Shown: positions 169 to 55,600 of the stretch, in pieces
How positions within the stretch are numbered: the stretch's first letter is position 1
Layout of the letters: every line of letters begins with the position of its first letter
Assembly: GCA_963924565.1 (NCBI GenBank)
Contig: OZ004611.1
Span: 23,808,001-23,872,000 of the forward strand
DNA: 64,000 nt
Direction: 5' to 3'
DNA from: Ascidiella aspersa
Lineage: Eukaryota
Notes under the pieces: generated by a model
Database searches by the model: none
What the model saw: the letters and a program-made list of their open reading frames with translations, nothing else
Told to the model about the DNA's origin: nothing
Position numbers and translations under genes: made by a program

Positions 169-3100
169 CCTCAAATGGAAATCGAATGACAGTCGATGGG
201 TCGAAGCGATTCGGGTAACTAAAAGCTTGGTTGTTTTTCGGCATCGCAAACCTGAGTTTTTCCTTCATTCCTCTTCGAAATAAAATATTCTGAACTACAA
301 AAATTATATTTGCTAGGGCAAAACAGTGGAAAAGAAAAGTAATACATTTGGGTGTCGCAAACTTTTCAAAAGATTGACCTATTTCGAAACACGTAAACTA
401 AAAGTAATATTATTGTATCGTTCGCCAATATACACGTGCGGCCGTGCGCGATTGTAAAATCGATAAACTTTTTTATCTCTAAGTTCTTGAAAGAAAGAAT
501 TATGTCAAACCTTGACTTTCTGTAATTTATAAGATCATTTGGATACGAATTATTAAGTCATTTGGTGTTAATTCAGTATTTAAATACAGGTAATAACGTT
601 GTCAAATTTTGAAAGGGATAGTGAAAATCCATTATGCTTTTCTCGTGGTTAGCGTCAACATAAAGATTTAAACCTTGACAAAATAAAACTGCGAAAACAC
701 ATATTCATTTTAGTTCTCAGGTTAATGTTGTGGCAATCAAACAAACAAAGATAACATACATTGCTATTTGTACTGTTTTTAACAAAATTTACCAAGTGCG
801 ATTATTTAACTGGGTGGCGTACCCTATACACTTTAGTGACAGCTTACCTGAACAGCTGAACTGGCGGTCTTGTGAGTTTTCAAGAATACGAGATTTTTCT
901 TGGGCATCCGGCGTCTTCTTACGAGGTCCGCTGCCCCTCTACAGAGTTGAACATATTACCCGTTAATTGGTGTTTGTCGCATTCGAATTTTGCAACGAAA
1001 CTGATGAACAATTAAGCAAATGTATTGTATTAATTTATCGCTATTATACAACTGAAGGCAATTTTTGTTTTTTCCAAGCGCGATTCTTGCGAAACCCAAT
1101 ATTTTTATTGCCTGGTGCAGAACAAAATTTTCGAGGAAGAAAATTTGTTGTTTTTAGACTGAATGTCTTATCTAAGAATTTCATAGTTAACCAGTAAATT
1201 ATCGTGAAAACCATATTAAGAGCAGTGCAAGATTCCAGTTACAGATCCACGCATGTTTTGGTTTGCTTTAATTGTTTTACCTTACCAGCTCCGCTTCATA
1301 GAAGTCGACAGAGACTACCCAACCGGTGACATCACGTCTTGCGCGGTCCTTCCATATCACGTGACGTGCCAACTCACCAAATTCTGAATCGACGGTGGCG
1401 ATTTTCTTTAAGTCGATTAAGTGGCCGTTCACAAATTCTAAGCTTAACTTCGACAGATGTGTATGGACGTTTCTAAGAAAAATCAAGTTTAGCATGCAAT
1501 TGATCACATAACTGCAGTGTTCTGGGCTTTGTATTAAGTGGTTTTATATCAGGGTTTCTTAAACATTTTGTTTCCCGTCCCTTCTAGTTCGCGGTTGACC
1601 TAATACCTTTTACAATCACTAATCCATTTAGTTCAAAATATTGTCTGTATGATGCAAAAGGCGATATATAGCTAGGGTTTCCATAATAACTTAAACACCG
1701 CAAAGAATATAGTAGCGAATAATGCAAAATACGGTTGGTTTGGTATCTGTTGTTTTTTAGGTAAACGTTAGATTGGCAATATAATATATAAAATACAGAA
1801 CGCGCGATAGAGTACTGTTCATAGGTTTGAGTTCAGTGTTGCTTAAAACTTATGTGAGTGCCTATTCAGCCACACATTAAAATGTCCAATGTGTGTAGTT
1901 GATGCTGCCATGCAGGGCCGCCTAAAACGCCAAAGGGGCTCCAGCAATAAGACCCAAATAAATTAAGCACATTTGGGAATAAAACCAGAATATGACTAAC
2001 AGCTAGGAAGCAGGTCGAAATAGGGATAATACTTAAACTGGTCAAAATAAAAACCTTATACCCTCTATAAGTCTCCCCCAATTTAAGAACCCTTGCTTTT
2101 AGTTTTTTTTAACTTATATTTGGTTATTTTTGAGTGTTATATATATATGTATAAAATCCTATAATTTCAAAAACCATTAACTGTTTTACTAACTCTGTGG
2201 TAAGGACGGCTCCCCAAATGTTTCCGCTGATTCCTCGAAGAATCGGTGTCCACTTTTTAGGGTCTTCAGAAATTTTATCGTCTACTACGATGATTTCTGC
2301 TGGAAATTCTACTTTCGGTCTGCAAATAGATTAGGGCAGTGCTTCTTAACCCATGGGCAGTGACCCAAAACTATGGGTGGCCAACAGTTTCCATGGTCAG
2401 ATTTATTAAGATTGGTTCTTAGCATGATTTCTGCGAAATTTGAGAAAATTGCAGTAGATATACGAAGAAATGGACTATAATATTAAATTCAAACTTAATA
2501 ATGATTATTGGTGTTTCATGTTGTGTTCGCTTGCAAAACGTTTGGTGAAATATTTGCGTTACCAAAGATTCTCTGTTATACTTGCGTTAGCATTAGGGCC
2601 GTCCCGAAAAAAAAAGAATAAAAAGAAAGGTGAAACCGTGCTTCCTATATTATTGTGGCTTAGTCGTTATAGTTTTAAATGATAGAGTGGAAATCAGTAC
2701 TCTCCAAATACCTTCCATTCTTGCATTGAAACAGCCAACGTTCTAATATCAGAGAGTTTCTTCGCGCCAAAATAATTCCCATGCCTGTAAAATAAACATG
2801 TAGATAGACAAAAGTGTTTTCTAGAATGTTTAAAAAAACAATTTTTTGTAGAGAAGTGTAATAATATTGTTAAAAAGATTATGTTCAAGCAAAAGTGAAC
2901 GAATTCGAATGCTAAACTTATTCAAAGGCTATGGAAAACTTTCTTCAGTCTTCATTAAACATCCTGACAATAATTCTTTCTCAACCACAAGGCAAACCTT
3001 AAATAGTATTTTACTAGCAGTTATCTAATTTATATAATGAATAGCGTGGTTTAAAAATTTTATTTGTAATGCGCTTATTTTTTAAATTTACAAAATTTTG

Positions 3101-10861: not shown

Positions 10862-13800
10862 TCACTTTGGGGCCCCACAGTCGATGTACATTTGAAGAGG
10901 TGTGTGCTGGTAGTCGCTGTAAGGCGAGGCCGTTGGGCCTTCTTGGCAGTTGGTTCGGTACCACCAGCCGCCTTTGTTAGAGGCAGCACAGCCGCTGAAA
11001 TGGAAAACGCGGAGAGTCAATAACTATACAGCTAGTAAAAGCAAGTGTGAATCAAAGCCTTAAAATCACAAATAAAACTTTACGTTTAACATATTTAAGA
11101 CGTGAATGAAAAGTATTTTGAAGATTCTTTGGCGTTTTGATAAGCATATTGTGTCAGCTCAAAAGTAAATGTGGAATTAAAACGTTCAAAGGTCTCATGC
11201 TTTTAGGCCTAATTTTGTTTTAGTGTGAAGAAGCTTTTTGTTACCCCATGTTGTTAACCTATATTGTTTTGTTTCTATAAATTTACTTTACATTGAATCG
11301 CTGTGTTAGCTTAAAAATCATGCCTTTTTTTGTTAATTTGGTATCGTAATCCCAGTACCGATAGTCCGATACCAATACTTATCATCAGGTAACAGCTACG
11401 AGTTGATATTATCGGACTCCACTAATACGCATCGTAAGCCAGTTTTAAAAATTATGTTTACCCAAAACGTCTACCCGTTTTAAGGATCGGAAAATTAAGT
11501 AAACCAGCGATAAAACCAACATATTTTTAACTTTATTTACCTTTATTTATTTACAAGAGTCATGTATAATTTTAAACAACAGTTTAGATCAGCGTTTCTC
11601 AATTGATGCGCCGTGGAAGGTGGCCAGGTGCGCCGCGAGAAAATGGGGAAAAAATGTTACAAAAATTCTGTATTATTTGTAGAATTTGCGAATAATTTTA
11701 GAATAAACTCTAGTCACTATTTTCTGTGAACAAACACTGAGCAATATGACTGGATTCGTAGCCCTTATTGAAGTCCCATTGGATGTTGGCTCTTCGCTAG
11801 CAAAGAAAGAGGAACTATTGCAACATATCTAGCGGGGCTTTCGCCATAAGACCGCAAATAAAACAACAGCAACTTCGGCATAAAAAACAGTTCGGAGTAA
11901 GACCAAAATAGGACTAATACCTAATACCCGTAATAGCGTTTAAATCAAAATAAGACCTAAATTCGTCCGAATAAGGCCTAAATGGCAAGAATAAGGCCTT
12001 TGCAACCTTTTACTTAACTCCAAACCCCACCCATAACTTCAACACAAACTCCCCCAATAATTTTAACCATAACCCAAATTCTAATTCTACCCATTACTCG
12101 CGCCTAACCCCAAACAGAGGCAAACAATCCCGTGTGTTTTCATAATTTACAACAAGAAGGGCCTACTTCATTTGTTTTCTTTCTCTTTAGGCATGTCTTA
12201 TTGAGCACATCGTATTTTATAGCAGGTCTGTGGAGTCGGGAGTCATATTTGGGACTCGAAGTACCGTAATCGATTTGTTTTGCTGAAATTGGACTGTCCC
12301 GAGTCCGACGTGCGCAGTACCAATTTTAAAACTAATAATGCCGCCAAATGCAAATTAAAAAGGCGAAATAGCATATGGTGGATATTTTCCAGCAATGTAT
12401 TGTGGTTGGATGAGATATATGACACCCCTATGACGTTTTGAAAAGGTTTACAAGTGCGCCCTGGGGTGAAAAAGTTTGAGAAACACTGGTTTAGATTGAG
12501 AAAAAAATAGGTCCGTTATGCCCTTCACGTTTTGTTCATATCTCAAACACGGAAATCCGCTACACGCGAGGCGCGAAATAAAAACAATCGTCATTTCGGC
12601 CAAACTTTCACTCTCGCGTACCATGTATGTGGGGCTATGTAGCTAAAATATTTCCTTAAAGCGTGCTACAATATACTAGAACGTCAAATAACATGCGATC
12701 GAAGTGCTAAATTAAGTTGCTAATACGCAGTTCAAATAGGCAAAATGTATAAATTGGAGGAGGTCAAGGGTCTCGTGGGTTTTATGCATAACAATCAAGT
12801 TAAGATATCCACATTATACAGCGAAACGGACAGCATAGGAGGCATTAAAATCACTACAGCAGGACTGAAATTAGAATATTTTATTTTCTGCAAAATTTAT
12901 TTTACCGGTACACTGTCCCGGTGGCATTACTTTTAGCAGAACACCGTTCCGGACTATTGCAACTTACTTTTACAACCGCTATACAGAACATTAAATGTAT
13001 TTTTTCATAAAAGGTCTCTGCGTTGAATTATTTTGAAAAATGCTACAGTCTACACAGTACTGTTTAAGTTCAGTAATAATAACCTTCGTATGAATACCGC
13101 CTTACCCGCTACTGTCGCTGTCGCGGGTGAAGAAGGAAACCGAGGCTCGTCTTGGAAAGTCGAAGAAGTCATTGCGATGAACATGTCCCGTTTTGGTGAA
13201 AGTGCTAAACCGCGCCTCGTAATTGTTGCCAGCGTTGCCCACCGTAAAGTCGCTTTAAAAAAGTAATCCGCCTTTGCATAACCAAAACTGGTAGCCCACA
13301 TCATTTCACTTTAAGGTAAATACCGTTAAAAACACTTTATTAGTTTTCTTCATTGTGCATGGGTACTTTCATGAATCTCAAATTAGAGCTAATTATATCA
13401 ATTTCCAAATATTAAATCTAAGTCCCAGTCCAAGTAATTAGCTACCCTAACAAAACAAAAAATCCATACGAATTACCTAAAATGCTTACTAAAGATCTAA
13501 AGATTTGTATAAGGCAAGTCATTTGACTTGAGTGCACCTACGTCAGGTCATTGACATCATTGCAACACAGCAAAATAATGTACGATGCCACCTGATCGGA
13601 CCTTGATCATGTACCTATAAAGTATAAATTTTACCACATAAAATAAGCTTTGGTTGATTGCTAGTTTCAGGAGTAGTTGGGGTTATTAAATATTTGGCAC
13701 GTGAATTAGCACTGATAGCCTTAAATAGTTAAAGTGGTTTGCAATGTTAGAAGCTATTCCAGATGCTTTCAACACGTAATTTTTTAGTTTAACTGTTTTT

Positions 13801-16800
13801 AGTTTTGTTTATTGTCGAACGATGTTAATAAGACATGTTTTTTTGTGCACACGTCAAAACTTTCTTTCAACCTAAATATTATTTTAAGCAAAAGTAACAT
13901 ATTAACTATATAGTTACCTAAATGCGAAATAGTTCGATGAACAGCTGTCATAGCAAGTCGTAACTGTACAGGCATCGTAGTAAGTTGTAAGTTCATTTAA
14001 GTACTTCAAACCTGTTGGGAAAGAATTTTATTTAAAAAGCGCACAAATGTGTTCGGAAAACTAAATAAAAAATGTCGAAAGTTGGGTTTATATTTTACTA
14101 ATCGGGCACCATGGTGTGAAAACCATTAACTTGCACTAAGTTTTATTTCGGTTCGTTTTCAAAGTTTAATGTTTAAGTTTAAATATCAAATCGGTTTAAA
14201 TTGAATGAAGACTGTTTTTTTATTTGAGACATATTTTGCTTCTTATACATAAATGTTTTTTACAGTCGCCGCTCCACAGGCGAATAAAGCTGTTTTGATT
14301 TTCGATATTCGATATTTCATCAGAAGTGTTGTGTAAGCAAGGCGATAAATTACTAGCCTGTGGTGACGTGTAATTCTACAGACCCGGCCATAGCGGAACC
14401 TTCACTATTTTGACTGAGCTACGCAAGCTCAGTGATTTAGGTGGTCAAAAATACCATAGCACTGCAGGTCGACAGATTTCTGACACCGAGTGCATTCGGT
14501 GTATATAATAATTTTGTGTGACTTTACTTGGGCAGAATAACACAATAAATACACATGTGTTTTTAATTACGTCGTAATTATTGTCAAATAAGCAGTACTG
14601 ATAAAATGTAACCTTGAAAATGTAGTGTACACTTTAAATGGTTGAGCCAAAAATTTACCTTAACTTTAGGAAACGTAGTTATCTTTGTTGTGAAAATAGT
14701 ACTATTTTGTAAGAAATAGCTTTCAAGATGGAAAACGCTGAGTTACAATGGAAAACCTTGACTGAAACGTATATGGTGTTTGTAACCTGGGTTTTTGCAT
14801 TTTTTTTTATATATAACCCGAAACCCGGTTTATAAATTTATGGAAACCCGTTTTATATTTTTGAAAAGACTATAAAGTGTTTATGTTGGAATTGGCTCGG
14901 ATGAATGCTATATATACTGCTCGTTATTTGCTTACTGCTGTGTCATAACATATTCATCGCGATTGTCGCAAACAAACAAACAAAAAATTCGGCACTTCTA
15001 CACTTAGGCCACACACAGTGGCGTAGCCAGCCGAAAATTTCAGGGGGGAGGGGGGCAAAACGTTTGAAGTTTTTTTATTTAGCTTTTGCCATAGTGTTAA
15101 CTGCCGTATTGAACACAATTAATAGCAAACCGTTACTAGCAGCAACTGACCGAGTTTTAACGCAGTACTCAAAATCCATTTAAAGAGTAAAACCAAAATG
15201 ACTATATAAAGTAGTAAGAGTACATTAATAAGTATAGCAAACGTAATAATGTCTATATCGTTTGTGACGTAACAGTGCACGACAATTGAAGGTGTGGCAT
15301 GCCTGTGATCGACTGTTGTGGTTATGCTCACAAATGCGAAAAAACAAATTACTAAGAGTAAAATATTTATAATTTTTGTTTTTTTAGGGCGAGCTATGTG
15401 CGGATGGTGACGTGTCGACTAGACATGAACCAATATAACGAAAATTAGTCAAGAAGTGAGATTTTTGCAACAAACTAAATATGAACATTTCGTTAGTAAA
15501 ACACAAGGTGTTTCATAGTACATATCGAGTCGATTATTGAGAAAAAATTACATTTTTTTTAAACCCGTTGTTTGCTGACGCTTACCCGAAACCAGGGTTT
15601 TAAAATTTAGCCCCGAATATCACTATACTGAAAACCACAATGTGCACAATCGCAAATTGACAAAGCATAGCTTAAGCCGCTTGTGATTACTTAGGAAACC
15701 TCGTTAAACGGTAGAGAACCACAGCGCCTACCGAGAAAAAACTCGTTTTTTGTGTTTCCAAAGCCGTGTTCATAGTCCTTCAGGTTGCGGTCGAAGCTGA
15801 GCTGACTGCCGTCTCGGAAAAAGAACAGCTGGAAAGGTAAAGGCGAATTTACATCAGACCTCACATTCTCCTGTCATATTTGCCAAAGCGATTTTTACTG
15901 CTTGTTTAATATGGGTCAATTCGACAAATTTGAATTCGAGTATGTGATTAAAAGATTTGGTGACTCTGTTGCTCTGTGAAAATCTTTAGCTTCAAGATTC
16001 CTGAAAATTTTCCACCGAGAAAACCTGTATATTAGGCATCTTACGTATAAGTCGCCGGTTCCTGATTAAAGTACGAGTAAATGATACAATGGAGAATTTA
16101 CGTGATGACTTGAGTATATGGTTAATATTTTATTTGCCAAAACGCATAGTTTTCCATATCGCCTGAAGCGTTATTCTTTCCAGGTATGTTTGACAGGTGT
16201 AGGGTGTTTACCCGGAAAACAAAGTAGTTTAATTCTATATATAATTAGCAATAAATGTATTCGCAATCGAGCGAGCCGGACAAATAGCCAATAAACACTT
16301 TTGGGAACTATTTACCCGGCCTACAAAGCTAATTTATTAGATTAGAGAATTAATCACGGAAATAATGCAAATTAGGCAAACTAAATTAAAATAACCACAT
16401 ACCCAACCCAAACGCTAACCCCCAACCATAATCAAACTAATGTTTAATCAATAATAAGTGTATGCTGTCTACCCTATAGCGAACCGGGCATAATGGTCAA
16501 ACCCCATTTGGTATTGGACTACAGTGTTTTGCGGAACACGCGACCTACCTTTGAAAATGTTTCTTACCGTTTCGTCGTGATTAGCTACAGGAACGAACTC
16601 AAAGTAGTTGCAGTTGCTTGCTTCGCAGCAGTATAAACACGATCGACTCTGAAACGTTTATAAATGTGCCGTTTTGTTTTGCTGCTGGCTTATGTAGGAC
16701 CTCGGCATAATTAATCTAGTTAAAACGCGGGAAGATTTCTACGAGTTCATAAAACTACCATTTCTGCATTGCCTTCAGAAGATGTTTGATTTCGAAATTA

Positions 16801-19800
16801 TTGATTTACCGACGTTGGTTTTATTACAGAAAGTGATAATGCAATCTAATTAAGTTTTTTAAAATAAATTTAGTCGTTTAAATCTGGCTACAGTATATTT
16901 TAGGCATCTGTCGCGGAAAGCCAGTGTACATATTACCAGTATTGTAATGACTTGAGTCATTAAGTTGACTGAAGTGCACTTATGTCACTGTTTTTTTTAA
17001 GTATTTTGACCAAAAGACTTGACTTGGTCTTGTCATTTTGTCAAATATCTTGGGAATAAATTAAATGTCATTAAAATTTTTCTTAAGTGTTGCCCATTAA
17101 ACACTTTCGTTGCTATATATTGTGTCTGTGTTATTGTTTAGTTAAATTGCTGCCTATAATTGGACGAGTTCACCAATTTTAATAGTTTTACGTTTACTTT
17201 TTTGTCAATGACATGATTTAAAATTGAGTTGCTCTCATAATGATTTGACTGAGACTTGACTTAGGCAATCGATAACTTGGAATGGCACTTGACTTGTTAT
17301 TTTTGTAAAATCCTGACCTTAAGTCAAATCCTGGACTTAAGTTATTTTTCAAATGACCTGATTGGAACTTAAGTCATTTCAAAATGACTTGTATACAACA
17401 CTGCATATTACAATATAAACATTAGTAAAATGAACACTCAGCTATAATTATACAACACTCTTTAAGTACCGGATCCGCGCCTCCGCCGCTCATAGCACAG
17501 TCATCTTCGTCATTTTCGTTATGGTCCGTGCAGGTTGACCGAGCGGTACACCTCTTGGTCACAGTATAACGACGACCGTGTTCCTCGATCTTTGTCAAAC
17601 ATGCGTCCTGCCGCAAAATATTTTCTCCACCATAGGGATGTGTGATAATATCGATTACTAGCCGATACCCAATGCAAAGTCGAGTTATCGTAAACTCAGA
17701 TGGAATCAGTGCATATACCCCCTTTAAAATTAATATGTGCGTTTCTGTCGTGGTTTAAAATCCTCCGCAATGATTTTCTTCTCTTAATTTACAACTTACA
17801 AATCTTACATTTGCACACATTTTAATCAATTAATGACGTCATCTGGATTTGGATAAAACGAATTCAAGCTTAAAAAATTAGGCTTTGGAACAAATCATTT
17901 TTGTTATTATTTGTCTTCCAACGGACATGTTATTCGATCAGAAGGCCTTAGTTGGCGATGGCGAAAAAGGGCGTGTAAGTTTACACCGAAATGGATTGCA
18001 CTGGTAACAACTACGTTCATTATTTCCCAGTTTTGTCCTCTAGCAAGATCATTTATACCGAGTCTCTCGTCAATTTGTGAAGCTGACGTCCTCACCAATT
18101 TAAATGCTTTTGGTTGATGGATATTTCTAGGTTTGGAAAGTATTTTTCCAAATATTTCCAAGATTATTTGTAGTTCTTAGAACAAAATAGGTTTTAAAAA
18201 TGTATCCCGCTATATGGCTAACCTCATTATGTCGACCTATTTTTAGTTGAATTTGCTAAAAGTGATGATGTCCTACTGAGAGATGATTTGTACTGTGGCG
18301 ACTCTATGCACGCAGTCTCCCTCCAGCATAATTGCTGGCGTACAACAGCTCGAGGGTGACCAAATCAACGTCAAATTCGAGTTACCACACTGCAGATAAC
18401 GTGGCGTATATTTGACTTTTTTCTTGCGTACCTTTTCGTCGTTGTTACTAGTGTACATGTTAAACACCAGTGGTCGAAAAACTGTGGGCCGCGAGTTACT
18501 TTTGAATAGTTTAGTGTTATAATGAAGTTGTGGGCCGCGTGATAGCTATACATTCATTGCACTTTGTTTTAAAAGTTTGTGTAACATAGAATTTTTAAAT
18601 TAGCCCAGCTTGGAAAGGCCTTCTGAGCATTCTGAGAGCTTAAACTGTATGTAATTGAAATTTTTTTCACCCGCCATTCTTCGTTTTATACTAAATTTTA
18701 CATTATGATATGGCAGTGTTTTGGCCATAAAGGCTCCGTGTAATATTTCACCTTAACATCAAATGTCCTGAATCTGCCACTGTTTTAGTAGTCATTTTAC
18801 GTATTGGGTCTTCAGTAGCTCTAAAAAGAGTACTTTGGGCCGCGACCAAAAAGGTTTGCCGACCACTGTTATACGCGCTTCTGTGAGCGCTTCGTACAAT
18901 CATCATCGCTATAGTACAAATTTAATCGTCAATCTGCGCCCTTACTTGGTGCGGCAGGCATTCCGTTGATGGGAACTCCATCTCCTCGAATCGTTGGCCC
19001 ACTCCCACGTGACAGTAATGGTTTGTTGCGTCACGCGCAAAGTCCAGCAAATCAGAAGACCCGTCCTGCAATTGCTCTGGCGAATTGGCATCCTCTTCAA
19101 CTGAGAAACAAATATCGTTAATGAATGTGCTGTACTTGCCAGGCATTGTTTTAGTTGTACAATTGCTCTTTCGGCAAAATTTTAATAAAGTGCCAACGTT
19201 TCGACCAGTGCAATATGATTGCAACTAAAGGCGAAAACTGTACATATATAAAAAAATACATATATATATATATATATACCAAGCAAAAAGTAAAATAAAA
19301 ACCACAATGAAACACGTGGTATATAGGCTATATATGTGTGTTTTCGCCTTTAGTTGCAATTATATTGCCCTCAAAAAGATTACCCGAATAGGTGGTCGAA
19401 ACGTTGGCACTTCATTAAAATTTGGCCGGACGAAAATTGTACAATCGAAATATGGATAAACTATAAGTTGAGAGACCGTATTTCCGTTTGAAAGCACCGA
19501 TACAAGAGGATCTGGGCAATCTGTTTTAAACAATCGCAGTCTGAATCCAATAGCCGATAATAAAGTAGAGTTCGAATTCACCAAAATTAACCTCTCTCCT
19601 CGAGGCCCATATCCGACTCCGATTCCGTATAGCCTTGTTACACCTATTCGTGTAGCACAAAACAGGATGGTTATGCAGAATTTACTAGGATTTTGATACA
19701 ACTCATATAACTTGAGTGGAAAAAGTGCCACCTAACGTAGAGTGTACAAATCGTTCACCAGCTGCTATTTTACCTTAACGATTTACAGTGTGCGATCTTA

Positions 19801-20538
19801 TTGGTTTCAAACTTCACTACTAAAGCGCATTTCGGAGTCGCAAGACTCGAGTCCCGTGTCGCAAATTCGACTCTATAGCCTAATAAACCGGTTTGGTTAA
19901 GTCCCGGGTCCAGAACCAACAGTTAACTGTACCGTTACGAAACTAATGGTCAGTTTTTTTTAAGTTTATATAATAATCGTGATAATTAGAACCAAGACAG
20001 TTACTCGTCAAGATGTATTTTTGTTTTTTTAAATCAAACGGTGAACGCATTTAGCTTTCAATTTCAATTCAAAACAAATACTCTGAAAAGCTTGATATAT
20101 ATATACTTTAGGTAGGGTTTAAACTTGTCAAGTTTTTTAAATTAAAATAATTAAAAACTTCAAAACCGAATTTCGAGGCCCCTGGACGTTGAGGCCTTAG
20201 GCTTCAGCCTGCCTAGCCTATTGGTAAATCCGGCCATGATTAGATTCCACAAATCTCCCAACGTCGACTTTTTGTAGGATTGTACAATATGATAATGATT
20301 GATGGACTCCCACGTAAGATATTGGGTAAAATCCTAATTACTTAAATTAAACTAAACCTATATCAGACTCGACACCATGTTCTGGTTACAAGAGATTTTC
20401 ATAAAACTATGAAACTAACGCTAAAAGGATTACTAGCATTTTTTAAATATTGTAAACTATACCTTGTAATAATGGGCCAGCAGCAGACAACTTCAAAACG
20501 CTAAGAGCGGCCAACGAGAAGAGAAAAGTCGCTTTCAT
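10862..20538 (-). CDS. Secreted Ly6/uPAR (three-finger) domain + fibrinogen C-terminal (FReD) domain protein, 306 aa
   Basis: Exons 20538-20463, 19100-18946, 17607-17470, 16648-16568, 15828-15732, 14011-13918, 13252-13106, 10994-10862 (921 nt, all phases match). Signal peptide MKATFLFSLAALSVLKLSAA. LU-type Cys pattern ending SCLYCCEASNCN. FReD motifs RDGSQLSFDRNLKDYEHGFGNTKNEFFLGL, DFTVGNAGNNY, FFTRDSD and CAASNKGGWWYRTNC. Confidence 0.85.
11590..12488. mobile_element. hAT-family non-autonomous element with nested repeats
   Basis: TIRs CAGCGTTTCTCAA / TTGAGAAACACTG. Perfect TSD GTTTAGAT (11582-11589, 12489-12496). Contains fragments of two other repeat families (about 11845-12110 and 12223-12430). 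Confidence 0.8.
16937..17403. mobile_element. hAT-like MITE (TGACTT-rich family), complete copy
   Basis: TIRs CAGTATTGTA / TACAACACTG. 8-bp TSD CATATTAC on both sides. Confidence 0.8.
18468..18868. mobile_element. hAT-like MITE
   Basis: Termini CAGTGGTCG / CGACCACTG with subterminal TGGGCCGCG motifs. TSD is degenerate (TTAAACAC / TTATACGC). Confidence 0.6.
19155..19444. repeat. Foldback / long inverted repeat
   Basis: About 19155-19250 (AAGTGCCAACGTTTCGACCA, TTGCAACTAAAGGCGAAAAC) is the reverse complement of about 19330-19444 (GTTTTCGCCTTTAGTTGCAA, TGGTCGAAACGTTGGCACTT). The centre is a (TA)n spacer. Confidence 0.75.
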
Positions 20539-22425: not shown

Positions 22426-25400
22426 ATGCTTAGCTGTGCGTGTGTTGTTCTGACTTGTCTTTTATCATGTGTATTGGGAGCCAGGACTTGCGTTTCGAAT
22501 CAGCAGGTAATTCATCATATTTACCACTTTGGCAATCTTACTGTTATGTATAGGCCGATAACCGTTGTTGAGGTTATTATTATATCCATAATATTTTGAG
22601 CAAATCATATATCGTTTAGATACGAAATGACGACATTACTATATGGTTACATAAGGAGGGAACAGAAACGTTTAAAGGTATTTTTTGTCCAGGAGGTTAG
22701 ACTAAAATTGATTTTACACCGAGAACACCTTCAGTTGTTAACTTACAACTGTCCAGTACGTAGCATTTTCTTGGTTAACCTATCAAAGGTAAAGTGGCAA
22801 CACTGGGTATCGAACTTTACCTAAAAACTTATCCGTTCGGTATGAATTGGGGAACAGATAGCACCTCGGTATCGGTCGGATACCGATAATTATACTTGAT
22901 GTCACGTATCGGCTGCGATATTACATTATCGGACATCCCTAGTTTACATAAACCAATATTTTCTACGCAATATGGTCTGTCTTTACTTCCCAAAATAAAT
23001 GCTAAAAGTTCGTAAATTAAACCAATTTTGTTTTGCAGGTGGATTTATCCAAGGCGTCTTTGACAATCCGAGACAATCTGTGGACTTACACTTCTCAGTT
23101 ACTTCGCGAAAGTCAAACTTTTCGCCAAAGCCCGATGAAAAACAAGGCGTTCTCCGCCTACGGAATAGCAGATATACTGATGGCAATGATCTTTCTCTCA
23201 GGTCAACATGATAGGTGCGTAAACAACACACCGTCTTCATTTACCTAAATATGTAATGAGTATAGGGCGATTATTTTTTGGCTTGTCAAAAAAAGTCAAA
23301 ATTTTGTCAAAATTTACACGTTAGGTCAAAATTTGTCAGCTTTTTGAAATTGGTAGTTCAGTTTTTTTTTAAAAGTTAGTTTTGATTTATATTCAAAGTC
23401 ATTTTAACCGTATTATATCTTTATTAGAGCAATATACTGTATAAAAAACGTGCGAATAACGACGCCTATGTTATTTAAATAAATGTATTACTAACAGGTC
23501 AACATTTTGTCAAAATAAATTATTTTTATGTCAAAATTTGTTAAAATTTTAACTTTTTAGGTCAAAATTTCTTAATTTTTTGGTCAAAAAATAATCGCCC
23601 TAGTAATGAGTTATCAAAACAAGGCAAATTATTGATTGCAAAAAGAATCGACCCCTGGGAGGAATTAGGAAGGAATGTAAAATACGTAAATTTATTGTTT
23701 AGCAGAAAATATCTCACTAATGCACGGTTGAATAATTAAATATTCTCTTTTGAAATATGATCTACATTTTTTCTGCAACGAAATAAAGCAGTGGTTCTCA
23801 ATCTGGGAGCCGCGGCGCCCTGTTGTAACATTTCTAATGCTTAAGGGCCGATAGGTATTTTATTTTTAATAATCTGTTTTTTGCAATCGGCAAGCTTTTT
23901 AAAACAATTATTTTTGTATGATTAGAAACCTTTGTATCAAATGACATTTTCCTTGTTTTAAGTTGTTGTTTCAGTTTTTAGTGACATTTGCGTAAACTAC
24001 TCACCAAAATTCCAGTCGGGGTGCCGAAAATATTTATTATTTTTTAGGAGTGCCGTACGCCATAAAAGGTTGAGAATGACTGGATTAGAGTATAAACTAT
24101 TACAACTATGTATACCACAAAGACAAACAAGACTTACCCGATTTCGCATTGACCCTTGATCATTTTACATTGACAGTCTACGATTGGCTTCCCACCCCTT
24201 GTTCGCTAATGTGCGTCTGCGACAATTCTCGGGCGCGTTAATTCGGTTGAGGCTTGCCGTTGAAACGCAACGCTGCAAAAAAGACGGAAGTCATCAGCAG
24301 ACAAGCGAAACCCGATTGCCCCTGTCACTCACAGAGGTCTTCAAGCGATCGCCACTAACTAATGTGTTCGACCCGGAGGACCCGGATTCTGAACGCTGGA
24401 ATTGGGACGTCTTGCACACAAATCAACGGTTGGCCGATTCTAAGGTAAATACCGTATAGTCTTAAAGTGTTAATCCAGTGTGTTTGGAATTGAAGAAAAC
24501 GCGCCGTGACTGCTGTTGAGATAAAGTCGACGTCTGTAAAAATGGACTAAAATGTGTAACGTTGTTATATAGCAAATCTGAAACATGATAATGAATGTTA
24601 AAGCCAAAAAGGTCGAGTAGGTTGAAATCAACTTGATTAAGACGTTTCGATACGGACTTGTGTCATTTTCAGTTAATGTGACCAAGAAGTAAATCAAAGC
24701 ATCTCTTATAAAAGGTGGGGCGCAATTTTTTTAACTGATGATGCTAAAAGTTCGTACTGAAACGTCTTAATCAAGTTGATGTCGATCTACTCGAGCTTGT
24801 TGGCTTTGCAAGTCATTATCAAGATACATTGCAGATTCGTGCATTATATAGATGCATAAACATATGCTTTGTTTCAGGGGCAGGGTGGCACCAACCTTAA
24901 CGCTATGCTGTCCGGTGGAAAACACACAGATGTCTATCGGATTCTGCGAGAGAACACCCAGGGCCCCAGAGAAAGCCTGGTGCTGATGAATGTAGCCAAC
25001 CTGCGAGCCTACTGGAAAGTTTCGTTCGCGAAAACCGATGCAATGTTGGCCTTCCAAGGGTTTCGAGAAAAAGCTACCAAAGTATGTGTTACATAAGCTC
25101 TACAGAGGCTTTTCGTTGCGTTATAGCGTAAACTTATAGCACAATGTCATATAATACAACGTAAAGGGTCAAATGTGTCTATTGAAAAATTGAGAGATTT
25201 AAAAAAGGCAAACACCTACGGTCAAAGACTTTTAATATTAGAGAAAATATTGCGCAAAAAAAGAGATGCCTAGTAATTTTCACAGGCTAGGATTAAAAAT
25301 AACTCAATTCTGTAGGCTTTATAGTTTAGCTGGAAAAAAGTCTGATTTCTGGTAACTGTAACACGAAAGGTTGCTGTCAAAAATGCTAAGAAAAGCTACC

Positions 25401-37600: not shown

Positions 37601-40483
37601 TGTTTCGTCAAAAGAAGTGAGAAATACTTCTTGAATTACTGATACAGATAACTATTTTTTCTTGTCTCCGAATGCAGCCGGCCCAACATGTTGCTTTTCT
37701 AACTGGTTTCCTTATTTTATCTTTTGGTTCCAGTTTTTTAAACGCTTTTCCTTTATACTTTTCAGCAGTGAACCAAGGGTATGTCGTTGGCCAACAACAG
37801 TATGTTCAACAACAGCAGCAGTTTGTGGCCCAGCCCCAGCAACAATATGCCCCCCAATCCCAGCCCCAGCAACAATTTGCTCCCCAAGCTCCGCCCCAGC
37901 AAAACATGGTCAGTTGCCTTCTTGTATGTGTTCAATGTTGGAATATGATTATGTTTTTATACAGCCACTTCAATTATTTTAACACAAATTGTTCTTTAGC
38001 AGGTTTCATACCTGTGTTTAATGAACATTTTTCTATAAAAACTTCATATTTTTTAATGTGTCAAATGTTGGAATACAATTATCTTACTTCACTTTAACTT
38101 CGCTTATTTAAACACAAAGTATTTTTAACAGGTGTTAGGGAAAAATGTAACCTGTTTTTAAATTAACATGGTTCTTGAAAAAAAATCATGTCATATTTGT
38201 AAATAACATGTTATAGGACTATGCTTAGAAAGCATGCATTTACTGTTTTAAATCAGTGTACTGCACCATTTCAGGTTTTGTTGCTATGTGTTCAGTTGTA
38301 CAGTTTGCTTCATAAAAGCGATAAATAATTTATTTAAAAGATGTACAAAACGTTTATAGGAGAACAAAATACAAACCCAACTGTTATGTCATGTCAGCAA
38401 TTTGTTTTAAGTTAGTACTCCTCAGTGTTAGTTTTTATGGAGCGGTTTGTTCAGATTAAAGTACCAACAGGTTTAGATTAGTTGAAAAGGTCCTATTTCT
38501 TTCTTTAGTAAATTCAGGTTTGTAATAACTTTTGCGGATTAGTTAGTCTTAACAACAGACTTTTATAGAATGATACATAATGCAATATATGGTTCATTAC
38601 TCATTAGTATAGTTCCTATTGATTTGCCAGTTTTCATTCAGTTAAACAGCCCGGTGTTTCAAGTACGCTCCAAGAAGGGAGTACAGTTACAATAAAAAAA
38701 TTAGACGAGACAGTGACTTCAATAACAGATCAGACGCACAAAGGCGCATACTGAGGTAAGTCATAGCAATGAAACTAGTGAGAACGCATTGTTTAACGCG
38801 AATTTCCTAGTGTCAATAGCAACCCTTATTATTGTGGTTTCTTTGTGACTATCACAAAGGAGCAATCCGGGGGGAACACTGTTCCCATTATAAATCAAAA
38901 ATGTCACCTGCTTTCATACAGCGTCATTACGGTGTATATTTCGTCACGGCGTGCTGTTGACTCAACATACCAGTATCCAACGAACTTTTTGCAGCCATCA
39001 GCATGCCAAGAAAATTGAAAAAAAAAACGCAACTCATTTTTTACAAAACAAAGTTGCTTTAAAAAATTATTCTGTAAATTTCAATGCCAAGACAAGATAC
39101 AGCTATATACCATTAAACCAATTACCAGTTGTCTAATCTAATGGACAGTTAAGTCACGTGGTTTCCTACAATGCCATCTGTTACATAAATAGGAGTATAG
39201 GGTTGTCGATGTACACTGTATATGGTTTCCTTGTATAACACAGTGCTGTTTTATTTCGCAGAACGCTCCCGTGTACTCCAACGATTACCCGCCACAGTAC
39301 ACGGTAAGTGATTTTGCAGAAGCTTTTCTTTATTTACAAACGCGCGTTTTGAGTTCCGCATTCCGAACAAAGTCAAGTTATGTGATGGGGGCAATATCTG
39401 TTTCGGTAATACTTGCTGAACGCTAGACCCAATATTTTTGGCATATGCGAGTGCGACACTGTTTGGTGATATGCCCTGCTGTTTAGCATGAAAAATTGCT
39501 TTGGGATTTCCTTTTTGGTGGGTTGACGCACTGAGCGTAGTTTGACATCAGCATGAGTTTCTATTTTTTTTCAGTCGGAACCTTGTATTCTCCATGGCAC
39601 AGCTTTGCCTAGCGATTGGCGCAATCACCTGATTGACCCACACTTTTCGCATTGCGATGTATCACACATGCTTATTACCGTTCTGCCTACAGGGCCGCAT
39701 ATATGACGTAGAGTTTGTCATTATAGCGCGTGATTAACAACTGCGTCAATTTGCGTATGGTTATAGTAGGTTGTTTCCGACCACTGTTGTGTGGTGTAAT
39801 TTGGATGTTCCCTGCGTCAGGCTTTGATACACCTCACTTGCCATTTGACTGTGTACACCATACACTGTACTCTCTGGCTGTACATCTCGTTTTTTTTTTG
39901 TTTTTTTTTTAGGGATTTTTTATTTCTACTTTTTCACATTGCATAACAGTTTTGGTCGTTTTATGAAAACATAGCTTGGTGTTTTTTTTATTTCTCTGAC
40001 ATTTTCGTACCTTTGACGACTTTTTTCGTATTTTAACCGGGCATGTTATGAATTAGGACGTCGTTAAAAAAATAGAGAAAAAAATTAAAACTATACAGGG
40101 TTGCCACATAATCTAAATCTTTAAAAGTCTTAATCTTTGAATTTATTTTAAGTGCTGCTTAAATTCTTAAGTTAAATGTTGAAACCGTGATAAAACCAGT
40201 TTTTCAATTATTTGTTATTCTGTTAAACATTGTATTTATACACTGTTTTTTTTTTAGTTTGATTTTTTTGTCATAAAATTGTGTGACGACGCTCTAATAT
40301 CACCACCTTTTTAACATTTGTGTAGAAAACCAATTGAAATAATTACAGGCAACGCAAGTTTTGGTGACTTTTTGAAGTTTGTTTTTCAACAAAACACGAG
40401 ACATTTGATTTTCAAAAATATCTTTGTGCCCGTTGGCCCTAATACACAACTTTTATTTTTTTGTTTTTTAGGAAAAAGCATAG
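31605..40483 (+). CDS. MS4A/CD20-like four-transmembrane protein with Q/P-rich C-terminal tail, about 273 aa
   Basis: Exons 31605-31706, 32561-32713, 32803-32859, 34218-34316, 34674-34799, 35538-35625, 37766-37908, 39262-39303, 40472-40483 (last exon EKA* less certain). Four hydrophobic helices: LGIIQVVVGALSIIF, AGIWCGVLAIIAGVLGIA, ITASVIMTVFAAIAAG, ILMSILSFIELVVAIAHSAYSC. Probable 5' UTR exon at about 30864-30891. Confidence 0.8.
33068..33653. mobile_element. hAT-like non-autonomous element
   Basis: Right TIR GGTTGCCGACCCCTG; left TIR degenerate. TSD ATTTAAAG at 33060-33067 and 33654-33661. Homologous to 29553-30482. Confidence 0.7.
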
Positions 40484-49600: not shown

Positions 49601-52600
49601 GTAGTTCTCAGTTTACTAAACCTGCGTTTGTTTATAGCGGAACATTGAAATCAACCGGAATCGATTGCAATTGTGCGTCCGTCACCAAAGGCCACGAGGC
49701 AACCCTGATGCAATACCTCATCACGTCACCACAATTACAGGATCTCTTGACCGGTGAGTTGGTGGGGAATACTTAGGGCAGAGCACCATAGCTCGTATTA
49801 TTTTGTTCCACGCTTTACAGTTCATTATAAACAGAAGTCAGTAGAACCGAAAATTAGTGAGGTGCGGTGTAAAGTGTTAAACTGTGATTTAGCGCATTTT
49901 TGTTAATGAGAAAGAAAAGGATCGCCGATCGTATTGTCTTTCGACAGCCTAAAAAATGGGTTAATCGTCCCCCTTTTATCTGAAAACGTCACCCGTGGCA
50001 CCGTTTATTTTTTATTTTTCCTAATTTCCTTTGGAAACTCAACGAAATGCCTTTTTTGCTAAATTTCGACTTACGGAGTAGGTTTTTCAACGGAAGTTCA
50101 TTTACATTATAGACCATAAAATTTTAAGAGCCTGAAAAAGCCCGTAGTTCGCCAGTAAACACTCTTTTTGCTGGCTTGTCACAAGTCAATTGACTTGAAG
50201 TCATAAAAGCCACCTTTTCTTCCGACAGAGGAGCAACGAAGCGTGGTACGTGACGCAATCGGCACACCGTCCCTACGCGCCACCACCGCCTTTAACGACT
50301 ACCTCTACTCGGTCATGGCCGGTTTCACCTCGCCCCAGGTGCTTTCCCTGTTGCAGAACCAAGGCCAGGATCAACAGTCAATGATAAAGTCGCTAATTCT
50401 TTCCAGCATCGGTGAGTAGCAAGTTTCTTTAAAACGTTAATAGCTAAAAAATATGTATGTACAATTGTACATTGTGGTATATATATATATATATAAGCAA
50501 CATTTATGTGATTTTACCAAAGTAGTGATGTATAAATAAAAATGCATAATAAAATTGAATTTCCTATAAATACATTATTTTTTTTTTACATTTATTGATG
50601 AAATTATTTTCTGTTTTAGTGTGATTATCTTTTAAAAAATAAAAATAAAATTACTTCGCGCGATTTACTGCTTAATACTTGGTTGTCGAATTTTACGATT
50701 CATATAAGCACCAAAGATTAAGGTTTCTTCCAAGCACACGTCTTTCAAAGCCCACAACTTTACCTCATTTTTTTATATACCTTATTGATTTATTTCACCC
50801 AGGTCTCGACACCTCAATGGTTCAAATCGTGCTCAACGGCGGCTTTCAGGACGACGCCAACAAGGTTTCGATGATCAACTATCTGACCAATGCCGGTCTG
50901 CTGGAGGCCACTTACATTCCCTTTTTGCTCGGCGTGCAGAACGGCAAGGACTTCATGTTGGCCAACTTAGTCAACTCGGTAGGTTTCTTCTCGTTTGCTA
51001 TAACTGACTTACTGCCGTTAAGCCGTTGACCCTGTCTGTTAAATGTAGGTGTGTTTGGCACAAGTTAGATTGTTTGCATACTAGCTCAAATGTAAAGGTA
51101 TAATTATTTTGCAGTTATGGCGTTTAACGAATGTCCCGGTTTAAGTTCAATCCGTAATTTAAAGCATATGGTTGTTTTGTATGTATCGGCTGGTTTGTAA
51201 GGTTTATTGAAACTTTCACAGCTCACCCGTGTTCTTGACAAACTCAATTTTGAGTAATTTATACTGTTTAGAACAAGCAATTCGATCTTAGTAATCGAAA
51301 TTGCTCTTTTTAAAACTAGATATCATATTGTAGTTGATTGAAGCGTAAAATTAATAGTGGTAGAGACAAAACTATAATATCAAATAAAAATGTTCATCGT
51401 CACGAATTTTCGGTGTAAATAATAACATACCAACATGAATGTTTTGCTTTCCAGGGTACGTTGGACCCCAGCATGGCGTTATTGCTGCAGGCAATGCAGG
51501 GCGGTTTAGACCAATCAGACCTCATCGGCATCTCTATTCTATCGAGTAAGTGATCCTCTTGCTAAACGACAGGCGAAACAACACAAGTGTATAAACATAA
51601 AAAGAAAAGAATGATTAGATCTTGTAAAACATGCGTTTTTTGTGTTTATTTCTACCATGATCAACAGTAAATAACCCTAAGTTAAATCTTACTTTATCAA
51701 CACAATTATGCTGTGATCGCATTATTTAATAATATAATCACGCCATACCTTGTCTGCAGTGGCCAACGGACAAAAGCCCGGTTACCTGGACCCAATTGGA
51801 AAGCCGTACGTTCCCGATCTTCCCAAGGGGATTTACCCGGGCAGTCAGCTCTACTTTGCTCATTTTGAAACTCTCGGAATTGACACGTGCTCGCTTCACG
51901 ACCTCAGAAGCAGGTAAGCGCTGTCAACATTATTTTGAAATATTTTACGGTGTTCACCAGGTGTTCGATTCGTCCGAGTTACAAGTGTTTAGCATTATCT
52001 GTCTGGCGCTGGGTTCGTTTTTTGCAAATCTATATCTTAAATTAATTAAAACGTCGCTTATTGCAGTTGAGGATTTTTAATTACACATACTAAAAAGCTA
52101 TTGGGTAATCAACGCATTTTTATCAATGTTTTTTTTATTTCATACACGCTTTGAAAATAACGATTGCTGATATTTACGTAGGACGTTTTACGTTTGATCG
52201 CAGTTTGTACAATTTCTTAAAATTGTGGAATGTAGTTAAAATATAAAAATACTCAACTTTAACGGTAATTTCTATAATATATCTAAAAACTGCTTTTGGT
52301 GACCATGATGCAGAAAGCTGAGCGAAATTATGTTGTAAAGAAATCGTTGTTTATTTCGTCATACCCCTTCTTACAAGTTTATTTTTAATTCTAGATTCGA
52401 CTGTGGTTACATCGGTATCAGTGCTGCTGAATGCGAGACGGTTCCTTACTGTTGCTACAACGTAAGTAAACCGTTTGATTCTACAAATACAATCAGTCAT
52501 ATAACGCATATGAGAATCTTGTACCCAAAAGAGTGCATAGTACCATTAGTAATTCAGATACTATAGGCTCAAAATCTAGACACCTGTGCCAAAGTATAAT

Positions 52601-55600
52601 AGTTAAAATTGCTATTATATTTGATGACCCGACTTTTGTGCTTTAAATAGTTTTACTAACTGTGCCATTTACAAGCAAATTTACTTATGTTTTAAACAAG
52701 AAGCAGTTTTCCCGATAGGTTCGATTTAACCTACGCCACACTATACTTAAAACTGTGAATTTAAGCGCACATTTTGCGCAACTTTCGAACGATGCTGACA
52801 AACAATGGCGATTGTGGTCATTTGAATGACGATTGTTGTTCTTATTGTTTTGTTGTTCTTATACCTGTAGCCTGTGTTCCTTACCGACATCGAAGTAGGC
52901 AACGCCACCAACAACCAAATCACGTCGGCCCTGGCAGTCCCCTGGTGCTACTACAACATCTTCTTTGTCTATTACAACAGCTGTAAGTAGATTGTTGACT
53001 ACCTTTACTAAAAGACGCACTTGGTTCAGAAAAAAAAAGATCAAACACAAGATAAGCATTAGCGCCAATGATAGCTATGTTGTCTTGGTTATATTCTGAC
53101 CATTAATTGTAACATGCGTTGTTGCACATTTGGCAAATCTAAACTGCCTACCAGCTAAAATCATTTAGTACCATTTGGTTAGAATGCTTGATTTTGTAAA
53201 TGGGGGATACTCCTATTAACCTGAAAATCATCGGCATCACAGCTACATTTGTTTTTTTGGTTTTTGAGAAAATTTGATATAGGAAGAAAATAATAAAAAC
53301 TTGTTTTTAACAGTTTACGTACAAAACACTATGTTTTGATTTTTGATCCGTATTTGTAAAAGTTACTAATAAAATTAGTGTAATGCAACTCAGTAAACAA
53401 TTTTTTTTTATAAAATGCTTCAAACGTAATGGCAAACTAATTATCAGTTTGTGGATTTAGCCATTGGCTAGTGTGTTCGATCTAGCAAATAAGGGACATT
53501 CTTAATAACCTAAAAAGCATTCGACATTACATTTCAGTGGTATGTAGAGCAAGTTGTAATGACGCCATTGTTTCTCCATCTGTTGTGTGTAGATTAACCC
53601 GTTCGTATTAAGTCTGCAGGGTAGAATTATATTTTTTTGTTTTTTAAGAAAATTTGATATGAGAAGAAATTATTAAAAACTTTTTTTTACATTTTAACGT
53701 AGAAAAGCACTATGTTTTTAATTTTTACAAATTAGCAATAAAATTGGTGTAATGCAACCCAGTTGAGAATCATTTTTTTATAATACGCATTAAACGTAAT
53801 GACCAACTGTTTAGAAGTTCGTGGATTTAGCCATTGGCTAGCGTGCTTGATCTAGCGAATAAGGGGCATTCTTAGCATTGGGCATCACATCCAAGCGGTA
53901 TATAGAGCAAGTTTAACTAACGCCGTTTTTATTTTCCTGCTGTGTTCAGATTACATGGACGTGAAGACACCGGGAGAGTTCGCTGCTCCCATGGAATGTT
54001 ACGGTCTGTTCAAGTTCGGAATCAAGCTCGAGCCTAGCCTGTACTACCTCTACGACCCACAGAACCCCAACTCGGGAATGTCCAAGTTCATTAACTTCGT
54101 ATGTGATAGCTTTCGTTTGCCTAATTTTTATCATATATTAAGATATCCTTTCAGGATGGCTGTTGTTACAATGAGGTAGCATGTCTTACCTTTGAAGGGC
54201 AAAGAGTCATAGGATTCTCAGTAACGCAGGCTTTCTACAAACCAAATGGCTATAATATCAATTTAAAATCGCGTAGTGTTAGTTAAACCCTTCACAGCAC
54301 ATTAATTTAGCAGTTTGTTTGATTTATAACGATTGTCATCGTTTTGCATGGGCCAGTCTTAGTTTTCAATATAAGTATTTGTAAATTAACATTGGGTAAA
54401 ATATTAAGCGCTGCGCATATTTCAAATGTAAGGAATCTGTTTACCTGTGAATTGTGACATGATTACGTCACAAAGAGCCAAGAATCGTAAATTGCCAGAT
54501 TAACAATTGAATGTTTCCAAACCTATATAAAGCAGAGCTCGGTGTTAATTCGTCAAAACATACTGGCGAAAATACGGATTAAAAACCAATCGTTGGCTAA
54601 GAATTACAATTACCAGAGGGACTGTTTTGATTAATATTACTATGCGTATAGTAGCAACAGTTTAAATAAGAACCACTCTTTCACGTCGAGTTATACTCTC
54701 TTCATTTTGCAGAGGCTGGAATGCGGATTCCCGGGCATCTCCGAGTTTCAGTGCGTGGCTGTGCGCGGCTGTTGCTGGGACGGTGACGCGCCTTACAGAG
54801 TACCGCAGTGCTACAAGCCAAACGGAGCAACAAAGTACGTCTTCGACACCAAAAAGATCCCGGCGGCCTACATGCCACGTGAGTATATATAGCTTAGGTT
54901 TTCTTTATACCAGCATATTTAATCGCTGGTAAAGGCTCAATGCCCTGTGTGACGTATTTTGCGGTTTTATTGACTCGCGACAAGGCATATACTTTAACGT
55001 AAAAACTGAACTGGCTTTTGTCAAGGAATGGTAAATATTCCGCACAGTAATGTGACCAAACGTTTTAATTTAAGGCCGAAATCACAACTTTTTTCTAACC
55101 GGTGCGTGATTACAATCACTGTTCTTTTATGAATTGTCTGAAAATTATCCCACCGATAAAATAAGAATATTCAATAAATTATTAATAAATCAAATCTTTT
55201 TCATTGTTAGTCAAAAAACTTAAAAACAAAAATGTCTGTTTGTCACACATAAAATAACCCGCATCGTCAACAAACAGACACTTTACTTCTGCCGACCCAA
55301 CACATTGTCCCACACCTGCTCTCTAAAGTTTCATGCGATATTTTTGGCCACTCAGGCCTTATACGAATTTAGCACGTAAACTTTGGCTGTAATATGTCGT
55401 TGATCTTAATACTAAGGTTTTTTTTAGAATTTTCTGCTTTAGGCATTGTTGCTTTTTAGGTCATATAGTGTGTTTCTGACGAAGGGTTAGAGTTGGCGAG
55501 ATAGTTATGTCGCTTCCCGACTTTCTTGGCCAAAAACTTAATCGCCCTAAACCTAATATGACTTCTGCACTAAAGTTTGGCACAAAGTGTTGTTACGTGT

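Follow-up and report, generated by a model that had tools for sequence, protein, structure and literature searches.

Ascidian genes joining a predicted three-finger (LU) domain to a fibrinogen-related domain that lacks subdomain A

LYPD1 (Lynx2), LYPD6 and GPIHBP1 are single-domain proteins of the three-finger (LU) fold attached by a glycosylphosphatidylinositol anchor, and in ficolins, which carry a fibrinogen-related domain (FReD), the trimer and the docking of proteases depend on collagen. The gene described here lies on the minus strand of a 64,000-nucleotide stretch of Ascidiella aspersa DNA (GenBank assembly GCA_963924565.1, contig OZ004611.1, positions 23,808,001 to 23,872,000; hereafter the window, which is C5:23.81-23.87 Mb in our exon searches of the whole genome of 308.6 Mb). 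It brings the two kinds of domain together in one predicted secreted protein. A molluscan protein with an LU and a fibrinogen-like domain has been reported, in silico, as a new architecture (Acta Naturae 2026, PMC13719153). That survey contains no tunicate, has amphioxus as its sole chordate and calls such architectures phylum-restricted. The likeness to our gene is the same domain pair in one predicted invertebrate protein, a closeness judged from the available text of the survey and not from domain order or sequence. Of the separate domains, the LU domain is defined by its core disulfides and by an Asn after the last Cys, and loss of the 2-3 disulfide is common, according to a 2019 review (PMC6600238). 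In the FReD of FIBCD1, as given in PMC3908420, calcium is bound via Asp393 and Asp395, the acetyl pocket S1 consists of Tyr405, His415, Tyr431, Ala432 and Trp443, and oligomer contacts are made by loop L1 near the N-terminus of the domain.

The gene model has 8 exons, which give 921 nt coding for 306 residues and a stop. All 7 introns have GT-AG ends and their phases are 1,0,0,0,1,2,2. The encoded protein consists of a signal peptide, an acidic spacer, an LU domain and FReD subdomains B and P, in this order; subdomain A is absent. The model reproduced the span, the length, the signal peptide, the spacer, the LU domain and the motifs quoted in a preliminary description of this DNA. The parts are as follows.

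Exon 1, 20463..20538, minus strand: start codon, predicted signal peptide of about residues 1-21 (putative cleavage site), phase-1 donor.
Exon 2, 18946..19100, minus strand: acidic spacer, residues 22-52 (8 D/E, 1 K/R), and the start of the LU domain with Cys55 and Cys73, without CxxC.
Exon 3, 17470..17607, minus strand: LU core with Cys80, 97, 103 and 114; Pfam UPAR_LY6_2, E 0.014.
Exon 4, 16568..16648, minus strand: end of the LU domain with Cys127, 130, 131, 136 and Asn137, a 13-residue tail and a phase-0 donor.
Intron 4, 15829..16567, minus strand: 739 nt, phase 0, the fusion point.
Exon 5, 15732..15828, minus strand: 97 nt, first part of FReD subdomain B; Pfam Fibrinogen_C positions 49-77.
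Exon 6, 13918..14011, minus strand: subdomain B with Cys197 (first of an extra pair) and Cys202/Cys206, which are common only to one paralogue.
Exon 7, 13106..13252, minus strand: last part of B and first part of P; the calcium loop, FFTRDSDSS, is shortened and has no third Asp.
Exon 8, 10862..10994, minus strand: P disulfide Cys265-Cys279 without the His after Cys279, a subdomain P about 17 residues shorter, the terminal strand with Cys302, and the stop.

The motif PHQ/DACLT is split across the joint of exons 2 and 3. The N-terminus is the sole hydrophobic stretch of the protein and no membrane anchor is present; the mature protein is acidic (isoelectric point 4.7), with 16 Cys and no N-glycan site. 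To these exons the gene adds introns with high-copy interspersed repeats (window 11600-12500, 15000-15400, 16900-17400 and 18450-18870), where the contig depth is hundreds of times that of the flanks.

Splicing was examined in RNA run X3, of which 7.8 million records (about 6% of the run) were read, with at least 3 reads required for a joint to be listed. The joint that carries the LU domain into subdomain B (16568/15828) was covered by 5 reads with 3 starts, on the strand that is right for a minus-strand gene, and the same numbers and the right strand were obtained for the joint of exons 6 and 7 (13918/13252). No subdomain-A motif was found in the 739 nt of intron 4; the lone open phase-0 candidate exon there was rejected, being unrelated sequence that the RNA reads skip. 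As the preliminary description had it, the N-terminal part of the FReD is missing, and neither an extra A exon nor a split of the locus into two genes, the outcomes it had named as contrary to its view, was seen. The locus is an expressed, spliced gene of a small ascidian family.

The scores of single exons are low. Pfam matched exon 3 to UPAR_LY6_2 (E 0.014), exon 8 to Fibrinogen_C (E 0.11) and exon 5 to Fibrinogen_C positions 49-77 (E 3e-4, 21 bits where the cut-off is 22), and gave no match for 4 of the 7 exons tested. In 30 shuffles of the window the CxxCC..CN motif came up once and the FReD motifs never, the real window having one of each, so the motifs of the gene are beyond chance. An LU gene beside a decayed FReD fragment, joined only by our model, could account for these sub-threshold scores and for the 5 of 7 joints without listed reads; it is scarcely credible, as the LU-to-B joint occurs in 5 reads of the right strand, no stop follows the LU exon, and the same open exon chain recurs in four genes at 33-40% identity.

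These four are the window gene and three paralogues built alike (C7:26.788-26.781 Mb, C7:26.776-26.769 Mb and C7:15.155-15.161 Mb), each with an open exon chain, matching phases and a candidate signal exon. Their number is a minimum, because exon searches of the genome give lower bounds. The four chimeras are mutually 33-40% identical and have even Cys counts of 14-16. None of the four has subdomain A, marked by C...YCD...GGW, and none has a collagen-like domain. The LU Cys positions of exon 2 are common to all four, and exon 5 of a paralogue matched Fibrinogen_C well (E 1e-10, 42 bits). In one paralogue an extra intron sets the calcium loop apart in an exon of 39 nt (G000:C7:26770349-26770311, minus strand, L019).

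The fibrinogen half has the motifs of subdomain B (R..G..F.R....Y..GFG...E...GL) and, in its subdomain P, the disulfide that flanks GGWW. When a profile of the last exon was compared with the PDB, the best 45 of 52 rows were FReDs, the first being ANGPTL4 (E 9e-6). FReD exons gave 154 matches in the genome, from which we sampled 13 loci. All 13 begin the exon at VFQRR or its equivalent, a figure biased by the choice of loci for an exon beginning at profile position 43-45, and the AG was verified in 12 of 12. Intron 4 of the chimera has the position of the intron before VFQRR in these ficolin-type genes. The preliminary description had placed the phase-0 junction at GGWT/VFQRR, as in ficolin and tenascin genes; the ficolin part stood, while the one tenascin-like gene examined (L055) has no intron at GGW/VQRR.

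The sampled loci fall into two classes. Class 1 (L037, L038, L041, L051) retains a full subdomain A. Class 2 comprises L035, L036, L039, L040, L042, L050, L052, L053 and L054, spread over C2, C3, C4, C5, C6, C7 and C9, with collagen upstream in 8 of the 9; its subdomain A is shortened in 4, without Cys in 4 and not found in 1. In L035, L039, L042 and L053 the succession of intron phases and exon lengths is 0, 97 nt, 1, 97 nt, 2, 129-147 nt, 2, and L050 agrees at these joints; the comparison covers these five, L036, L040 and L052 being mis-modelled and L054 without a model. An extra pair of Cys, one opening the ELRIDL strand and the other closing the MKIRP strand (Cys197 and Cys302 of the window protein), is found complete in 7 class-2 loci and the 4 chimeras and is wholly lacking in 5 other FReD loci, 2 further loci being read at one site only. 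In the class-2 genes the two sites read C.LRID and MKLRCD. That the pair arose with the fusion was ruled out, since class-2 ficolins already have it. The two strands that bear these residues are adjacent in the structure of the fibrinogen gamma-module, so that Cys197 and Cys302 probably form a disulfide. The chain of PDB 1fzd, a FReD of 201 residues that begins at the GGW motif, suggests that B and P can stand without A.

The chimeras thus resemble class-2 collagen-ficolins in four intron positions with their phases, the 97-nt exons, the extra Cys pair and the P disulfide. They differ in having neither collagen nor any of subdomain A, in a WW-to-Cys spacing longer by one residue, and in a subdomain P shorter by 15-20 residues from which S1 is gone. 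On sequence grounds the fibrinogen half likely derives from a class-2 collagen-ficolin of the same genome. This claim is founded on introns and Cys, because the tree of the FReDs does not place the chimeras with class 2.

The LU half has 10 Cys, of which 8 belong to the core, including the terminal CN, and 2 form an extra pair in loop 3. Through an LU profile, Cys55, 73, 80, 97, 103, 130, 131, 136 and Asn137 align with LYPD1, which supplies the Cys expected for core bonds 1-5, 4-6, 7-8 and 9-10. The CxxC of loop 1 (2-3 disulfide) was sought in exon 2 of the four chimeras and found in none, so the domain would lack this bond; its membership holds nevertheless, because loss of the bond is common in the family (PMC6600238). 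Exon 3 has 6 invariant columns across 12 genome copies. A profile of 46 positions, built from exon 3 and 11 genome copies, was run with HMMER against 1.84 billion representative proteins and gave 18 matches. Twelve have a name, 10 being ascidian (Ciona, Clavelina, Styela), 1 from a sea cucumber and 1 from a hemichordate, and 6 have none. No Fibrinogen_C was found in the 18, and 13 of the 18 have no Pfam match at all; standard Pfam scans would under-call the chimeras for that reason.

The Ciona homologue P0002, folded with window and paralogue exons in the alignment, was modelled with a predicted local distance difference test score of 87.9. Every row that Foldseek listed for this model is a protein of three-finger type (LYPD1 first, E 0.005; none reaches E 0.001), and in a VIA comparison ranks 1-39 are all LU folds, with Z 9.5 for GPIHBP1 (root-mean-square deviation 2.6, 75 aligned) and Z 9.3 for Lynx1. 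The structure search that the preliminary description proposed as a check of the fold came out in its favour, on this homologue, and by homology to it the window domain would have the three-finger fold as well. In the ESM Atlas, row 6 for P0002 is an 878-residue chordate cluster with VWA and Sushi domains that aligns with a TM of 0.66 by query; it may be a further chordate mosaic that contains an LU-like domain.

The nearest solved LU domain by sequence is LYPD1 (E 0.027). The chimera shares with LYPD1, LYPD6 and GPIHBP1 the predicted three-finger fold, with LYPD1 the extra loop-3 Cys and with GPIHBP1 the acidic stretch before the domain; the 2-3 bond is kept in those proteins, and orthology to the chimera is not established. 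These likenesses, with ANGPTL4 as best match of the last-exon profile, would fit a signalling modulator, in which an LU domain of LYPD1/LYPD6 type acts on a receptor or channel and the FReD serves as a ligand of angiopoietin or scabrous type. We consider this quite unlikely: the LYPD1 and ANGPTL4 matches are weak and reflect the fold only, and introns and Cys indicate ficolins, not angiopoietins.

Closer relatives of the LU half are small secreted ascidian proteins with a single LU domain, among them Ciona LOC100181139, Clavelina LOC143465469 and Styela LOC120342551. They have the same 10-Cys pattern with no 2-3 bond and the extra loop-3 pair, and often an acidic spacer before the domain, but they stop after the LU tail; all are uncharacterised. 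The YFEFVP tail was discarded as a remnant of subdomain A, since LU-only genes carry the same tail pattern. The statement that the LU domain is followed directly by LFFFRDGS holds for the exons, which are spliced directly, and not for the protein, in which the 13 residues of the LU family's own tail follow CN. LU-only genes of the same subfamily, some in near-identical tandem, are clustered at C5:30.10-30.12, C5:25.70-25.71, C6:6.44-6.54, C1:1.21, C9:7.34 and C2:17.63 Mb.

In an LU tree of 26 rows the four chimeras and 2 LU repeats of a neighbouring gene are on one branch (97/98), against 20 LU-only rows; a long-branch C9 copy, omitted here, fell on the chimera side in a separate tree. The repeats belong to a signal-LU-LU gene right behind two of the chimeras (G000:C7:26764622-26756192, minus strand, L017/L018; one modelled exon end is a few bases off). 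Two separate LU genes at this place were ruled out, both forming this single gene. In the tree its repeats are placed with the adjoining chimera (92/81), a sign that the fibrinogen half may have been lost secondarily. Exons of a protein kinase, recognized by eye, lie directly downstream (G000:C7:26751400-26744000, minus strand, L016/L017).

By alignment, the S1 residues of the acetyl pocket are missing in all four chimeras. The equivalents of Tyr405 are N/N/V/S and those of His415 are Q/N/D/R, and the stretch bearing the other three residues has 16-20 residues in the chimeras versus 34-37. The P disulfide is retained in all four. The calcium loop of the window gene, D-S-D-S-S, is 3 residues shorter than that of FIBCD1 and the third Asp is missing. 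All five intact class-2 ficolins that could be modelled have the full-length segment, and 2 of the 5 the His after Cys. The view that the FReD half is the recognition module of a working ficolin, implied in the preliminary description, is not borne out by these residues. Ficolin ancestry, the P disulfide in 4 of 4 and DxDxD in 3 of 4 could still speak for a pattern receptor of lectin type whose pocket has been rebuilt for a new specificity, with the LU domain replacing collagen as effector or docking arm. This is improbable, given that all five S1 positions are changed or deleted in every chimera, that the window gene lacks the calcium Asp, and that the chimeras have lost both the full-length segment and the His that class-2 ficolins keep to the extent just given.

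The reading we prefer, to which we give a probability of roughly one half, is that, in a gene of ficolin type, the exons for signal, collagen and subdomain A gave way to a secreted LU gene, and that the product may be a soluble, two-headed protein binder instead of a sugar-binding, complement-activating ficolin. A single event of exon shuffling likely joined the LU exons to the ficolin exons at the phase-0 intron; origin by exon shuffling was already proposed in the preliminary description, and the position of the joint at the ficolin intron supports it. The extra Cys197-Cys302 disulfide would pin the last strand and could have made subdomain A dispensable. As collagen is lacking, the usual ficolin trimer and protease docking are not expected, and without the subdomain-A loop, which provides oligomer contacts in FIBCD1/TL5A, the protein may be monomeric or differently assembled. 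The LU domain and the remodelled face of P would each bind one protein partner: having neither a collagen stalk nor the residues of the sugar pocket, the protein is likely a two-headed binder rather than a classic lectin. Because of the ficolin ancestry, the most probable setting would be defence, or a mucosal or tunic surface.

A bolder reading, which we hold to be less likely than not, is a stepwise transplant within one genome. The ficolin lineage would have gained the clamp disulfide, A would have eroded, and the LU domain would have taken the place of A, packing on B via the conserved F-E-F-V-P tail; the result would be one fused fold with a composite binding surface, and a new tunicate recognition family.

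Several points weigh against the preferred reading. In the tree of FReD subdomains B and P (14 rows) the branches of the chimeras are long and class 2 does not group with them; a single clade was not rejected by the tests (p-AU 0.42 for the chimeras, 0.40 for the chimeras with class 2). The co-occurrence of the extra Cys is among kin and does not represent independent events. The Cys197-Cys302 disulfide and the packing of LU on FReD are predicted. The DxDxD calcium motif is full in the three paralogues, so that a new glycan site is possible there. In RNA run X3 the depth over the exons is about 1-7, beside the five joints without listed reads. No full-length homologue was found outside the A. 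aspersa genome, in weak searches: exon 3 gave 1 candidate and no match, the LU alignment 7993 candidates and no match (this search missed known LU proteins such as P0001), and the last-exon alignment 80 candidates and no match. The equally weak scans of metagenomes gave 0 loci and 7 loci, 5 of the 7 being usual FReDs and none having a credible LU exon chain; the ESM Atlas held generic FReD and LU clusters only. Metagenome contigs carry intronless full FReD genes (L079-L081) with the same three-residue spacing from WW to Cys, an intact subdomain A and no LU gene attached.

The long FReD branches would also fit the loss of a lectin job in a structural or adhesive part of an extracellular coat (tunic, mucus net or vitelline coat), rich in disulfides and without immune role. 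The protein is secreted and acidic, with its 16 Cys and no anchor, and fibrinogen-like proteins of ascidians are present in the vitelline coat (PMC7018956). Such a part is unlikely here, for no polymerising domain was seen in the protein and RNA depth was low in run X3, whose tissue is not given.

The egg coat is also where v-Themis-like ligands of self/non-self recognition would act, a role raised in the preliminary description. Like v-Themis-A/B of Ciona, the chimeras are secreted fibrinogen-like ascidian proteins, and their paralogues have evolved rapidly; they differ in genomic setting, no s-Themis host gene being found, and the exonic differences listed gave no sign of hypervariability. 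The v-Themis genes lie nested and antisense in the first intron of a PKD1-like s-Themis gene, and in exon-level searches, which are lower bounds, this setting was not found at the chimeras. The 15 REJ matches of these searches are all on C1-C4 and none is near the four chimeras, which are on C5 and C7; 147 frames of the window contained no PKD-type Pfam match. Conversely, LU+FReD genes beside REJ loci were looked for in 20 stretches adjoining 5 REJ loci and nothing was found. The exonic differences listed from three runs are 3 silent and 1 Gly-to-Asp replacement, from reads among which alleles less than 90% alike would not map. This role we consider very unlikely. At C2:33.74 and 33.87 Mb (L058-L069) two REJ-domain genes stand head to head about 120 kb apart, a layout like that of s-Themis-B/B2; no fibrinogen-like exon was found between them by motif or tblastn.

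Elsewhere in the window, an exon at 836-955 (minus strand), downstream of the chimera, has a weak match to galactose-3-O-sulfotransferase (E 5e-5, below cut-off). Several coding-like frames at 22999-25128 (plus strand) face away from the chimera, and a stretch resembling a signal peptide, with a Gln-rich tract after it, is found at 37621-38094 (plus strand); neither has a Pfam match. Two exons of trefoil (P-type) domains (52339-52563 and 54635-54889, plus strand) belong to a larger gene at about 48-57 kb. Exons at 59326-63267 (minus strand), without Pfam match, resemble by eye what we take to be DNase I motifs.

In searches of the open-licence literature, neither an ascidian LU+FReD family nor the replacement of subdomain A by an LU domain was found described. 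The preliminary description had called the chimera unusual; it is one of at least four, and the pairing of LU with fibrinogen is in print for the mollusc (PMC13719153), but an ascidian family of four members that lack both subdomain A and the pocket, and whose ficolin donor can be traced, appears to be undescribed so far. Since both the LU subfamily and the ficolin class that were used are ascidian, the fusion probably arose separately from that of the mollusc. The 2019 review (PMC6600238) questions whether the LU domain is a genuine mobile module. In A. aspersa, LU exons have been attached to a foreign domain at one of its own internal introns, the product has been kept in four diverged, intact copies, and the same donor site was reused for the LU-LU gene. 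Because the genome holds ficolins whose A is full, shortened or Cys-less, which are the likely intermediates, it offers a testable case of a disulfide freeing a subdomain for replacement, and the family adds four uncharacterised secreted proteins from the sister group of vertebrates.

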